Origin: Candidatus Bathyarchaeota archaeon | Lineage (GTDB): Archaea > Thermoproteota > Bathyarchaeia > Bathyarchaeales > Bathycorpusculaceae | Assembly (NCBI GenBank): GCA_963806535.1 | Contig: CAWDYC010000004.1 | Location: forward strand, 96,001-160,000 | DNA length: 64,000 nucleotides | Direction: 5' to 3' | In this document: piece after piece, positions 817-35,729 of the stretch | How positions within the stretch are numbered: the first letter of the stretch is position 1 | How the letters are laid out: every line of letters starts with the position of its first letter | The notes under the pieces: model-generated | The model's database searches: none | Seen by the model: only the letters and a program-made list of their open reading frames with translations | Told to the model about the DNA's origin: nothing | Position numbers and translations under genes: made by a program

Positions 817-1363
817 ATGCGGCTCCCAGAAATCTCTAAAACTATTCAAGTTCCAGATAACGTAAATGTAAGTCTAGATGGCAAAAAAGTCAACGTTAAA
901 GGCGCCAAAGGATCTTTAACGCGCGACTTCTCTTTCGCTACAATATGCAATCGAAGGCGACGGCAAAAATATTCGTATTTGGGCAAAGTGGCCTCGCAAA
1001 AAGGAAGCCGCTCTAGTAGGAACGATAGCCTCACACATTCAAAACATGATTACAGGCGTCACAAAAGGATACACATACAAGCTAAAAATCGTGTTTTCCC
1101 ACTTTCCAATCTCCGTAAAACTTCAAGGCAAATCTATTTTGATTGAAAACTTTACTGGGGAACGAAGAGCACGCAGCATAGATATAATTGGCGACGTCAA
1201 GGTGAAAATTGAACCTGACGACATCATTGTTGAAGGCATAAACTTGGAACATGTAAGCCAAACTGCCGCCAACATTGAACAAGCTACAAGAGTAAGAAAT
1301 AAGGATCCAAGAGTTTTCCTTGACGGCATATACGTTTACGAAAGAAATGAGGGTATTGCTTAA
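817..1363 (+). CDS. rpl6: 50S ribosomal protein L6 (frameshift near 945, probable sequencing indel)
   Basis: ORFs 817-1146 and 1046-1363 give N- and C-halves (KDPRVFLDGIYV). Confidence 0.95.
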
Positions 1364-1947
1364 TGGCCACTGAAAAGATCGAAAAGAAACCATCATTATC
1401 ACAAAAAGCACTTAAAGTTAGAGCTCGCGCTAAAAACAAGAAACCTAAATTCGTTAGAGCTGAAAGCTGGAAGTATGATAGATTCAGCGTAAGTTGGCGA
1501 AGACCCAGAGGATTAGACAACAAGATCCGACGAAAAATTAAAGGTTGGCCAGCTGGCGTAAGCGTTGGCTACAAAGGACCAAAAATTGCCAGAGGTTTAC
1601 ATCCATCAGGATACCGAGAAGTCTTAGTTTACAATGCCCAAGACATATCTACAGTTGACCCTACTACTCAAGCCGCACGCATCGCACATACAGTCGGCAA
1701 AAGAAAACGCGCATTAATTATTGCAGAAGCCAAGAAACTTAACGTTAAAATCTTAAACGTCAAAGTTTCAGCCGAACCTGAAGCAAAAGAAGAGGAAGCA
1801 GCCGAAGGGAAGAAGTCACAGAAGAACAACCGCAAACAGAAGAAGCCGTTGAAGACGAAAGAAGTCAAGGAAGAGAAGACAAAAAAGAAAGAGAAAGCAC
1901 CAAAGAAAACCAAACCTAAAACAAAGAAAGGAGAAGAAAAACAATGA
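1363..1947 (+). CDS. rpl32e: 50S ribosomal protein L32e with Lys/Glu-rich C-terminal extension
   Basis: WRRPRGLDNKIRR and RGLHPSGY motifs. Confidence 0.95.
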   Translation: MATEKIEKKPSLSQKALKVRARAKNKKPKFVRAESWKYDRFSVSWRRPRGLDNKIRRKIKGWPAGVSVGYKGPKIARGLHPSGYREVLVYNAQDISTVDPTTQAARIAHTVGKRKRALIIAEAKKLNVKILNVKVSAEPEAKEEEAAEGKKSQKNNRKQKKPLKTKEVKEEKTKKKEKAPKKTKPKTKKGEEKQ

Positions 1948-33582: not shown

Positions 33583-33807
33583 TTAAATCGCACTTTTTGA
33601 TTTTAGGCTTTTTCGATTGAAGCCTTTTAAACCAACTAAAATCATGAGACTGCCAATAATTACAAAAGATATTTCCAATGAGTTTAGAATGGCGCTTTCT
33701 TCATAGATCTTCATAAAGCCTATTATGAAGAAGAATAATCCCAAAAAGTCTAGATTTACACCGATAAGTGTGAGGTACAAACGAGTTTTCATGCTTATTT
33801 TGCTCAT
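33583..33807 (-). CDS. Small 2-TM hypothetical protein
   Basis: Two hydrophobic helices. Confidence 0.6.
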   Translation of the reverse strand: MSKISMKTRLYLTLIGVNLDFLGLFFFIIGFMKIYEESAILNSLEISFVIIGSLMILVGLKGFNRKSLKSKSAI

Positions 33808-34011
33808 TAATCACTCTTCCGTATTTTCCGGATTTAAGAATTGTCATCAATTATGAGCTAGGTAATTCTTTTAGTCTTTACTTAACATTTTTTCGACTTT
33901 GCTTCCAAATGGTTTTAAGCCATCAGCACAAGCTGTCTTTCTAAATGTTAATTTGGTAATCAGAGTGGCTTTCAATAAACGTTAAGAAAATGTGCATTTG
34001 CCGCTGGATTA

Positions 34012-34248
34012 CTATTTTCCTGTGACTTTCCTTGTCGCGATTTCAATGTCTTTTGTTTGGATAGTTTTTCTTCCCGCGTAAATTGCATAATCCAATGCTT
34101 CTTTTGCAATCTTTGTGCCGATCTCATCGAGAACTTTTGCAAGCTCCTGAGCTGCTGTTTCACTTACTCTGTCTGCTCCAGCTTTCTTGCATAATCGATG
34201 CATTGGAGCCATCGCTATTTCTATTTCTTTCATCTTGTCTTTCTCCAC
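34012..34248 (-). CDS. Archaeal histone (HMf-type)
   Basis: APMHRLCKKAGADRVSE...A.YAGRKTI...DIEIA histone fold. Confidence 0.95.
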   Translation of the reverse strand: MEKDKMKEIEIAMAPMHRLCKKAGADRVSETAAQELAKVLDEIGTKIAKEALDYAIYAGRKTIQTKDIEIATRKVTGK

Positions 34249-34360
34249 AGTCTCTTTACCTTTTTAAGGTAATATTAAGCTTTGTTATCTTTATTCTCTT
34301 TGAATTGGGCAAATTATAAATACAAACAACGACATAATTCATATCCCGAGGTTTATTAGA

Positions 34361-34417
34361 GTGGCCAAGAAACCAGCTAAGAAAGAAGTTAAAAAAGCCC
34401 CAGCAAAGAAAAAGTAA
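34361..34417 (+). CDS. Lys/Ala/Pro-rich 18-aa micropeptide MAKKPAKKEVKKAPAKKK
   Basis: GTG start, GAGGT RBS, GGCAAATTATAAA promoter at ~34308, T-rich terminator at 34441-34458. Confidence 0.6.
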   Translation: MAKKPAKKEVKKAPAKKK

Positions 34418-34514
34418 AATCTCGGCATAAGCACATTTACTCTCTTTTTTCTTTTTTTAAGAAATCGTTAATGTAATCGCCGATCAAAATGGTAGAAAAC
34501 AAAGGTTAGTTTTC

Positions 34515-34853
34515 TTACTGTTTGTCAGTAAGGTCCTTAAGCTGTTTTTTGTTTAATCCAACTCCTGGTTCTGCGTCCAGACGTTTGTGCACTTTTCCTT
34601 TTTTGAACATTATCACTGTTGGGTAGTATTCTATGGCGTATTCTTCGCAGACATCGGGCTCCTCGTCTACAATGACGCTTAGGCACTCTTTCGGATTACT
34701 CTTTGAATATTCCTCAAAAATTGGCAGGAACCGCTGTGAAAACGGGCACCAAGTTGCATAGAAGAGAACATATGCTTTGTCTTTGTCCTCTATTTTTTCG
34801 TGGAAAGTGTTTTTCTTTTGGTTTATATTTTTTTGTTTCTTTGCCGCGCTCAT
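34515..34853 (-). CDS. Thioredoxin-like protein (CPFS variant)
   Basis: FYATWCPFS, YYPTVIMFKKG. Confidence 0.85.
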   Translation of the reverse strand: MSAAKKQKNINQKKNTFHEKIEDKDKAYVLFYATWCPFSQRFLPIFEEYSKSNPKECLSVIVDEEPDVCEEYAIEYYPTVIMFKKGKVHKRLDAEPGVGLNKKQLKDLTDKQ

Positions 34854-34866
34854 GAGTTATAACACC

Positions 34867-35729
34867 TCAATATCCTGTTTGAGGATCAAGAGAGCTTCTT
34901 GTTTTTATAAAAGTACCGTCTTCCAGCTCTTCAAAGGCGTTGTCTAGTTCTTCTTCAGTATTCATTACGATGGGTCCTCTCCAAGCCACAGGCTCATTCA
35001 AAGGTTCACCTGACACATAAAGAAAGCGACTGCCGTTTTTTGAACTTATTTTGACAGAATCTCCTTCGCCAAAGACTACGCATTGCCCCTCCGTTATGGT
35101 TTTACTCTGAACCTCAACAGAGCCCTTAACGATATAGGCAAACACTGTATCGTTCTTGGTTGTTTTGTGTTCAAATGTTTTTCCTGTGGCTAACTCTACA
35201 TCAAAATACTCTATGTCAATTGCTAAGTCACGAACAGGTCCCTGAATTCCATCTACATTTCCCGCTATGACTTTAATCTTTATGCCATCTTTTTTGGACT
35301 GTTGGGATTTGTTCTTTTACTATTCCTCGGTATTTGGGATTAACCATCTTTTTCTTTGCGGGCAAGTTTACCCATAGTTGGAAGCCCTGCATCAAGCCGT
35401 CATATTTTTGTGGCATTTCCTGATGAATTATGCCTGAACCCGCAGTCATCCATTGTACGTCTCCAGATTTTATTACGCCCTTGTTGCCCATGCTATCGCC
35501 ATGTTCAACCTCGCCTGTCCACATGTAAGTGACCGTTTCCATTCCTCTGTGGGGATGCCAAGGAAAACCTTTGATGTAGTCTTCAGGGTTGTCTGATCCA
35601 AAGTGGTCTAAAAGCAAGAAAGGGTCAAGCGTAGAGTCTTCATCGTTACCCAAAACTCTTTTCAGCTTAACTCCTGCGCCTTCAAGAGTAAGCGTGACGC
35701 TTCAAAATCCTTTGAATTTGTCTCTCCAA
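34867..35729 (-). CDS. Pirin family protein (frameshifts)
   Basis: LEGAGV, DPFLLLD, GFPWHPHRGMET, GFQLWVNLP, GPIVMNT. Confidence 0.9.

Follow-up and report, generated by a model that had tools for sequence, protein, structure and literature searches.

A lineage-restricted micro-gene for a putative lysine-rich peptide beside a histone gene in Bathyarchaeia

Can a free peptide of 18 residues serve archaeal chromatin as a lysine-rich tail or linker serves the chromatin of other cells? In the usual view, archaeal chromatin is organized by tail-less histones together with a few small architectural proteins, and no H1-like partner is known in it. The question is raised by a very short open reading frame (ORF) that lies divergent from a histone gene in 64,000 nucleotides of DNA from Candidatus Bathyarchaeota archaeon (assembly GCA_963806535.1, contig CAWDYC010000004.1, positions 96,001 to 160,000 of the forward strand). 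This whole stretch is called the window, and positions are counted from its first letter. The original prediction, made from the letters alone, was that the ORF encodes a separate “histone tail” or linker-like peptide, co-regulated with the histone and acting in chromatin compaction. Comparison with related genomes indicates that the ORF is a real, unannotated and lineage-restricted micro-gene. The best overall explanation, to which we assign a probability of about 0.5, is that it is translated into a polycation resembling the C-terminal domain of linker histone H1, and that this polycation binds DNA, likely DNA wrapped by histones.

Anatomy and conservation of the micro-gene

The micro-ORF (GTG GCC AAG AAA CCA GCT AAG AAA GAA GTT AAA AAA GCC CCA GCA AAG AAA AAG TAA) would yield the peptide M/V-AKKPAKKEVKKAPAKKK, in which nine of 18 residues are Lys, encoded by AAG and AAA in mixture, with four Ala, two Pro and a single Glu. 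Taken alone, such an ORF is not beyond chance: the window's genome (40% G+C) holds 68 stop-terminated frames with at least seven Lys in the last 16 residues. What raises it above chance is the recovery of 51 intact copies together with a substitution pattern of the coding type. In a first scan, covering 1.5-kb flanks of the best histone match in 30 related genomes, the 18-codon ORF adjoined the histone in four, the window's own genome included. Alignment of the loci placed the start of conservation at the TATA box and its end at the T-tract; the flanks may be unrelated. When the 161-nt module was compared by blastn with 120 genomes of the genus, 45 of them yielded strong copies, 51 in total (E 1e-23 to 1e-79); a further copy was truncated at the end of a contig, and the remaining matches were short and weak. 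The 51 strong copies are designated type A.

The ORF is intact in every type-A copy, at 17 to 19 codons (57 nt in 41 copies, 54 nt in seven and 60 nt in three), and each of the ten length differences is a whole number of codons. The start keeps its position as either GTG (30 copies) or ATG (21), the stop is always TAA, and 25 distinct peptides are encoded. Substitutions were analyzed in the 36 distinct ORFs of 57 nt. Among these the nine Lys are invariant, with only A or G at the third positions of their codons, and the third base of Ala2 is four-fold variable (A in 10, C in 10, G in nine, T in seven); replacements cluster at residues 6, 9, 10 and 15 (A/V/E/T). Mean pairwise differences at codon positions 1, 2 and 3 were 0.019, 0.102 and 0.211, and the Nei-Gojobori ratio of nonsynonymous to synonymous differences per site (pN/pS) was 0.17 in frame versus 1.11 and 0.77 in the other two frames; because the sequences are short and related, these figures should be considered rough. 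Purifying selection is specific to the reading frame, start and stop codons are retained, and insertions and deletions come in triplets only. With both checks, ORF conservation and synonymous substitution, in its favor, translation of the micro-ORF is judged very probable from comparative evidence.

The signals around the ORF are conserved with it. The promoter block GCAAATTATAAATAC is almost invariant across the 51 copies, the DNA upstream of it diverges, and the block is retained as GCAAAT(C/T)TTAAATAC in the paralogues and sister genera described below; GGGCAAATTATAAATAC probably acts as the promoter of the micro-gene. CCCGAGG is near-invariant in type A and present in all eight sister-genus copies, and the spacing from GAGG to the start differs by 1-2 nt among copies, as expected for an untranslated leader. 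The 3′ end of the 16S rRNA of the window's genome, GGATCACCTCCTAAG, is complementary to GAGGT. The T-tract stands at the same distance from the stop codon in 51 of 51 copies and in all paralogue types, with unrelated sequence beyond it at different loci; by analogy with known archaeal oligo-T terminators, it probably terminates transcription. A CCTC/CTCTC motif (34436-34444 in the window) lies directly 5′ of the T-tract in many copies of every paralogue type, and could contribute to termination or be a second element resembling an anti-Shine-Dalgarno (anti-SD) sequence. The parts originally described, namely a B recognition element (BRE) with TATA box, GAGGT, a GTG start, 9/18 Lys with varied codons and a T-tract, are all present in the sequence, and a separately encoded Lys/Ala/Pro (K/A/P)-rich micropeptide gene with its own promoter, ribosome-binding site (RBS) and terminator agrees with both sequence and comparison. 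Note that our consensus scan for sigma-70 promoters and hairpin terminators, which are bacterial signals, has no bearing on an archaeal unit. Coordinates are collected in Table 1.

Table 1. Features of the micro-gene locus in the window, and diverged relatives of the micro-gene
Feature	Positions	Strand	Description
Micro-ORF	34361-34417	+	GTG start, AKKPAKKEVKKAPAKKK, TAA stop; 18 codons, net charge about +8 (from translation)
Putative archaeal core promoter GGGCAAATTATAAATAC	34307-34323	+	BRE-like GGGCAAA, then TATA box TTATAAAT at 34314-34321 (read directly)
Ribosome-binding site CCCGAGGT	34345-34352	+	GAGGT at 34348-34352, 8 nt upstream of GTG
AAATCTCGG	34417-34425	+	Pairs with CCGAGGTTT at 34346-34354 (nine pairs, one G-U); resembles anti-SD
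Oligo-T tract TTTTTTCTTTTTTT	34445-34458	+	Presumed archaeal transcription terminator
Divergent archaeal histone gene	34012-34248	-	Stop 34012-34014; likely start ATG 34233, 73 aa
Candidate histone promoter	34270-34285	-	ACAAAG CTTAATATTA on reverse strand; about 30 nt from TATA box of micro-gene (read directly)
Thioredoxin-like gene	34515-34853	-	Flanks micro-gene
Type B paralogue			MAKDKSPKKEEKKQPAKKK
Type C paralogue			(TTG/GTG)-PAKKPAKKEVKPAKKK, then a hairpin covarying between copies
Type D paralogue			VAKAPKKEDKKGKKKK

The weaker matches in the genus are diverged paralogues of like architecture (types B to D in Table 1), in which the promoter, RBS, GTG, TTG or ATG start and T-tract are kept. 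One type-D copy, at C5:295021-295071 (VAKAPKKVEKKVKKKK), is in the genome from which the window comes and has a near-identical promoter (GGCAAATTTTAAATACAAAT), GAGGT site and T-tract, and the type-D pattern was found in 47/120 genomes of the genus with no control matches. A pattern of the first eight type-A codons matched 39 of 401 genomes of the order, again with no control matches. Outside the genus it matched 6/23 and 2/5 genomes of two sister genera, as well as a 21-codon ORF of another family that is not related; sampled across the class, it occurred in 10 of 103 genomes of the home family versus none of 297 from other families. Sister-genus copies have 17-23 codons, for example VAKKPAKKEVKKAPAKKAPVKKK with an additional PAKKA unit, and retain the promoter, CCCGAGGTTAAACTC-GTG, TAA and the T-tract. 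In the genomes searched, the peptide family thus spans 16-23 aa in three genera of one family of Bathyarchaeia. A profile search of the 120 genomes, based on a peptide alignment of 30 rows, added no copies to those of the DNA search, and was too insensitive for this family, as it missed the type-D copy of the window's own genome. A type-A micro-gene, together with a histone of Bathyarchaeial type, lies on a 1549-nt contig (L115) in a metagenome-assembled genome labelled Thermodesulfovibrionales; this contig is probably mis-binned.

Annotation pipelines miss genes this small, as had been anticipated: all ten tiny relatives of 20-42 aa that were looked up are absent from a collection of 15 billion proteins, a look-up confined to relatives of at least 20 aa.

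Linkage to histone genes within one genus

The micro-gene occupies a 266-nt gap separating two minus-strand genes, the histone and a thioredoxin-like gene. The histone ORF matches Pfam PF00808 (CBFD_NFYB_HMF; E 1.8e-10) and PF00125 (E 5.5e-09) and is essentially tail-less, as first described, with no K/A/P tail in 34012-34248. The distance of 112 nt between the two starts is also correct when counted from GTG to GTG; it is 127 nt from ATG 34233, where relatives of the histone start. The candidate histone promoter is conserved between loci L001 and L003 and may serve the histone.

A histone gene, usually an extra paralogue, lies within 1.5 kb of 46 of the 51 type-A copies in the genus. In 42 of these loci the two genes are divergent, with a gap of 109-142 nt in 33 and of 258-763 nt in nine; in the other four they are in tandem on the same strand with the histone upstream. 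The remaining type-A copies have no histone within reach (three) or are cut by contig ends (two). Named records of the GTDB gave a histone in 8/9 type-A loci, but these overlap the same genomes. Among 24 genomes of the genus, the module was present in 10 of the 12 with at least two histone matches versus none of the 12 with one; relatedness among the genomes, and the fact that “matches” do not give exact copy numbers, make this a pattern rather than a statistical test. In a tree of 65 distinct histones, 40 of the 45 peptide-linked sequences fell in a faster-evolving group with weak branch support (89/58), and the remaining five fell within a slowly evolving, otherwise unlinked paralogue. The window's histone is one of the faster-evolving extra paralogues. 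The “linked” label requires five changes on this tree, at least two of them forced by well-supported branches. Taken together, the neighbor counts and the tree indicate that, within the genus, the micro-gene travels with an extra histone and has stayed adjacent to a histone gene through several rearrangements.

Several smaller observations concern the surroundings of the pair. In a subset of loci (L036, L041, L050, L055, L064 and others), the histone and the micro-gene lie about 300 nt apart, with no convincing ORF between them; the upstream flank TCTCAAATACAGCGTGGGCTTTAAC is common to these loci, and an insertion or a small RNA gene is possible there. The thioredoxin-like flanking gene is present in five genomes without the histone-peptide pair, where its neighbors differ. 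In L002 and L003 the DNA 40-90 nt downstream of the micro-gene holds, on the opposite strand, strings resembling a tRNA T-arm (GGTTCAAATCC-type, reverse complement). ARAGORN found no tRNA in ten loci, including L036 and L033, which correspond to L002 and L003.

If the peptide had been a detached histone tail in the evolutionary sense, fused forms might be looked for among histones. A search returned 1297 homologues of 40-128 aa, longer proteins being outside its range; the 120 best were listed and eight were read. No histone with a fused K/A/P tail was seen among these 120, most of which are 73 aa long, and the longer entries that were read reflect upstream read-through or a C-terminal LSFDYF extension. 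The “histone tail” identity given to the micro-gene, a separate gene on the opposite strand, is therefore an analogy and not a homology. The extended histones form a variant of about 79 aa (P0037, P0053, P0054, P0082, P0025) with a hydrophobic LSFDYF or LFFDYY ending, and the window histone has no such extension.

Proposed role and its alternatives

Under the preferred explanation, positions 34307-34458 would form a self-contained monocistronic unit comprising BRE/TATA, a leader of about 20 nt with GAGGT, the GTG start, 18 codons, TAA and oligo-T. Its product would be a free, disordered, proline-punctuated polycation made from a near-consensus promoter and acting by charge. Like the H1 C-terminus and bacterial PAKKA and KPAA tails, such a peptide would be a mobile counter-ion that follows the phosphate backbone or the minor groove of DNA, and by lowering the repulsion between DNA gyres it would favor compaction or bridging. 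On histone-wrapped DNA the peptide would behave as a free-standing H1 C-terminal domain or as a counter-ion of the protamine kind. Of the possible targets DNA is the likeliest, because this chemistry acts on DNA wherever it has been studied and because the gene is kept beside an accessory histone; the substrate is probably histone-wrapped DNA, since within the genus the gene travels with the extra, faster-evolving histone paralogue. Given a real gene, we put chromatin, as opposed to RNA or polyphosphate, at roughly even odds as the target. A more specific version, in which a free 18-residue linker-histone-like peptide is gained and lost with the extra histone paralogue and tunes hypernucleosome compaction in trans, possibly under the control of acetylation, is doubtful.

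A number of observations weigh against the preferred explanation. The predicted histone linkage held for 46/51 copies in the genus and failed elsewhere: a histone lies within 1.5 kb in only one of eight sister-genus copies and in none of 11 fetched copies of types B to D. The neighbors of six scanned type B-D copies are metabolic genes, and the type-D copy of the window's own genome lies between folate/pterin-pathway-like genes and a dihydroorotate-dehydrogenase-like gene. At all five sister-genus loci scanned, the micro-gene adjoins a tandem ferritin-like gene (PF00210, E 1e-35 to 1e-38), and three of the five are also flanked by a gene for the S component of an energy-coupling factor (ECF) transporter. 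The histone association is genuine but local, and adjacency within the genus may be inherited two-gene synteny instead of selected coupling. The P[AV]KKK* ending and type D were both not found in five near-complete genomes of the genus (96-100% complete), which implies that the function of the peptide is dispensable and that the family is young and accessory, with a copy number that varies. Such a polycation would bind RNA or polyphosphate no less readily than DNA. Finally, a purely coding role leaves the invariant CTCGG behind the stop codon unexplained. The ferritin-like neighbor (L228, L230, L232, L233, L234) is itself of note: it has 326-362 aa and two PF00210 domains, its synteny is conserved, and PF00210 also holds Dps.

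A first alternative is a real and translated peptide that has no specific chromatin role, being instead a general binder of polyanions (associated with RNA or the ribosome, an RNA chaperone, or an organizer of polyphosphate granules), with the histone as a neighbor by inherited synteny. Types B to D and 7/8 sister-genus copies are not beside histones. The window also contains an ORF at 1351-1947 (+) with a K/E-rich C-terminal extension of about 55 residues, presumably ribosomal protein eL32 by its resemblance, so that Lys-rich extensions on RNA binders appear at home in this genome. A K/A/P protein, AlgP, associates with polyphosphate granules, which it organizes, according to PMC9239181. A core ribosomal role can be rejected within this alternative, the distribution being accessory and patchy: type A occurs in 45 of 120 genomes of the genus, in none of the five near-complete ones by the patterns tried and in none of 297 from other families. 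For the broader proposal, the adjacency to histones is a difficulty, as it survives three arrangements and occurs with both groups of histone paralogues. We regard a general polyanion binder as a possibility to be taken seriously, albeit a tentative one.

A version close to the original prediction, a histone tail supplied in trans, goes further than a DNA-binding polycation: the tail-less histone or hypernucleosome would be the docking site of the peptide, the two genes would share regulation from a common divergent promoter region, and the peptide could be a substrate for Lys acetylation. The two core promoters do stand back to back within about 45 nt, and the gap of 109-142 nt is held in 33/51 copies. 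At 18 aa and 50% Lys, the peptide also fits the range of Asgard histone tails given in bioRxiv 10.64898/2026.07.02.735847, and PMC6136690 reports a tailed histone in a Bathyarchaeote. The lack of any fused form among the 120 best of 1297 histone homologues speaks against such a tail, as do the loss of linkage in the paralogues and in all but one of eight sister-genus copies, and no feature of the peptide suggests a docking surface. This alternative, with direct docking of the peptide on the histone, is unlikely.

Could the RNA be the functional product, with the ORF secondary? In a small structured or dual-function RNA, the Shine-Dalgarno-containing 5′ end would pair with CCUCGG behind the stop codon. 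In type A the stop is followed immediately by A(A/C)CCTCGG, of which CTCGG is kept in 50/51 copies. This sequence can pair with CCGAGG(TT), and CCCGAGGT doubles as the 5′ arm of a possible long-range stem; CCCGAGG and CTCGG are invariant or nearly so, and the 3′ untranslated CTCGGCATAGGCACATTTAC is conserved like the ORF. The minimum free energy fold of 34341-34452 includes the nine-pair stem, and two single changes (L072, L064) keep G-U pairing. Neither of the usual marks of a structured small RNA, however, was found: the fold is no better than those of shuffled sequences (z 0.41), and no pair covaries. The 6-bp core of the stem is invariant in 24 type-A copies with no compensatory change, and therefore leaves no covariation to test. 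A search of Rfam with 33800-34900 (E up to 10) gave chance-level matches only, the best at 20 bits versus gathering scores of 50-90. Sister genus g21 and types B to D keep the ORF but not the 3′ arm, and substitutions follow the codons. An RNA product is accordingly improbable to a high degree. The stem may sequester the RBS, or it may shield the two ends of what would be a very short mRNA.

Finally, an ORF that arose by chance in A-rich intergenic DNA, for example as the complement of the T-rich terminator of the thioredoxin-like gene, has a negligible probability, as has a lysine leader peptide for an attenuator, notwithstanding the 68 Lys-rich short frames of the genome and the position of the ORF between two minus-strand genes. 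The module is conserved beside unrelated and varying downstream neighbors, and it shows frame-specific purifying selection, in-frame indels and switching between ATG and GTG. A T-tract ends the unit, and the next gene in the window is on the opposite strand.

The locus matters for several reasons. It presents a conserved, unannotated gene whose whole product is a polycation like an H1 tail and which stands repeatedly beside an accessory histone paralogue, and the pair offers a concrete case in which to ask if a separate gene can provide tail or linker functions in trans. Standard annotation overlooks genes of 16-23 codons even where purifying selection on them is clear. If the peptide does act as a free linker-like partner of the histone, this would be the smallest dedicated chromatin protein known, and a two-gene module of histone plus detachable tail would suggest a route by which tails or linker functions arise before their fusion to a folded domain.

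Comparison with known lysine-rich polycations

Profile scans of curated families covered relatives of at least 20 aa, the 18-aa peptide being shorter than the scan minimum. None of the relatives of 20-58 aa matched a family, the best scores being 9.7-17.5 bits versus cut-offs of 80-100 (Rv3852_fam, hist_H1_lk_Burk): the 23-aa relative reached 9.7 bits versus a cut-off of 100, and the best of any relative was 17.5 bits versus 80. HC2 (PF07382) gave 13.4 bits versus a cut-off of 40, and Pfam gave no match for the 20- and 23-aa relatives. The titles and abstract openings of the top-ranked literature matches mention no free archaeal K/A/P micropeptide, which does not prove absence.

The closest likeness in composition is to the C-terminal domain of H1. 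Both are rich in Lys, Ala and Pro, disordered, built of (S/T/A)PKK-like units (KKPA and APAKKK here), and expected to compact DNA electrostatically. The peptide has an H1-like segment with PKK-type motifs (KKPAKK, APAKKK), a match of composition only, and its 18 residues are too few for the winged-helix domain of linker histone H1 (PF00538). It differs from the H1 domain in length (18 versus about 100 residues), in having no winged-helix globular domain, and in its host, an archaeon whose histones form no octamers; the likeness is one of composition with no detectable homology. Kinetoplastid H1 also has no globular domain. PMC8015243 describes the Lys-rich H1 C-terminus as similar to bacterial Lys-rich DNA binders and as required for compaction.

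Bacterial H1-like proteins (AlgP, Hc2 of PF07382, NCBIfam hist_H1_lk_Burk NF038053, Rv3852_fam NF050153, mycobacterial Ku) share the repeat chemistry and the KKAP[AV]KKK* ending, but carry them as tails or arrays of 50-350 residues, usually on a folded domain, whereas here the peptide is the whole protein. At least 120 loci in GTDB representative genomes contain KKAP[AV]KKK followed by a stop, and nine of the 120 listed are type-A Bathyarchaeial. More than 100 bacterial loci have this ending, and most of the other matches listed close a long K/A/P tail of a bacterial protein; judged by their sequences, these proteins seem to include topoisomerase-I-like, HU-like and H1-like ones. Peptides of this kind bind DNA in vitro (PMC9239181 for KPAA repeats; PMC3553676), and AlgP is a KPAA protein (PMC9239181); PAKKA repeats form the basic tail of mycobacterial Ku (PMC3553676).

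Tailed archaeal histones are comparable in length and Lys content (18 aa and 50% Lys for the peptide) and in belonging to archaea in which the association with a histone gene is seen; the peptide differs in being encoded by a separate gene on the opposite strand, and the likeness is drawn from published descriptions, not from a comparison of tail sequences. Those descriptions, in PMC6136690 and bioRxiv 10.64898/2026.07.02.735847, place tailed histones in Asgard archaea (HLoB/HMpB) and in one Bathyarchaeote (B23), and the latter source gives the Lys-rich N-terminal tails of the Asgard histones as 16-32 aa with more than 30% Lys.

Very small basic ribosomal proteins such as eL41 are Arg-rich and universal in their lineages. 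They resemble the micro-gene product in size, charge and strong expression signals and differ from its family, which is accessory and variable in copy number and length.

The nearest counterparts in form are free K/A/P ORFs in other lineages. About 12 of the KKAP[AV]KKK-stop matches listed are free tiny ORFs of 21-42 codons with an RBS, from Promethearchaeota, an Iainarchaeum and various bacteria. Examples of the type MAKKKAPAKKK(APAKKK)n are L099, L187 and L199 (Promethearchaeota or an uncultured archaeon) and L140 (Iainarchaeum); bacterial examples are L112, L144, L151, L161, L185 and L202, and the bacterial ORFs carry hairpin terminators. Eight of these numbered ORFs were looked up, and none is in the collection of 15 billion proteins. 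No histone was detected in the loci of free K/A/P ORFs from other lineages, and these ORFs probably arose independently. With free peptides of this sort unannotated in Asgard archaea and DPANN archaea as well as in bacteria, peptides serving as counter-ions of nucleic acids may be a whole class that has been overlooked. Like the Bathyarchaeial peptide, the K/A/P peptides of these lineages are free, have the same composition and ending, are preceded by an RBS and are absent from the protein collection; unlike it, they are longer (29-34 aa in Promethearchaeota, 42 in Iainarchaeum, 21-33 in bacteria) and more regular, with (KKKAPA)n repeats. Set beside all of these, the Bathyarchaeial micro-gene encodes a new, extremely small and free-standing form of the known H1-like K/A/P polycations.

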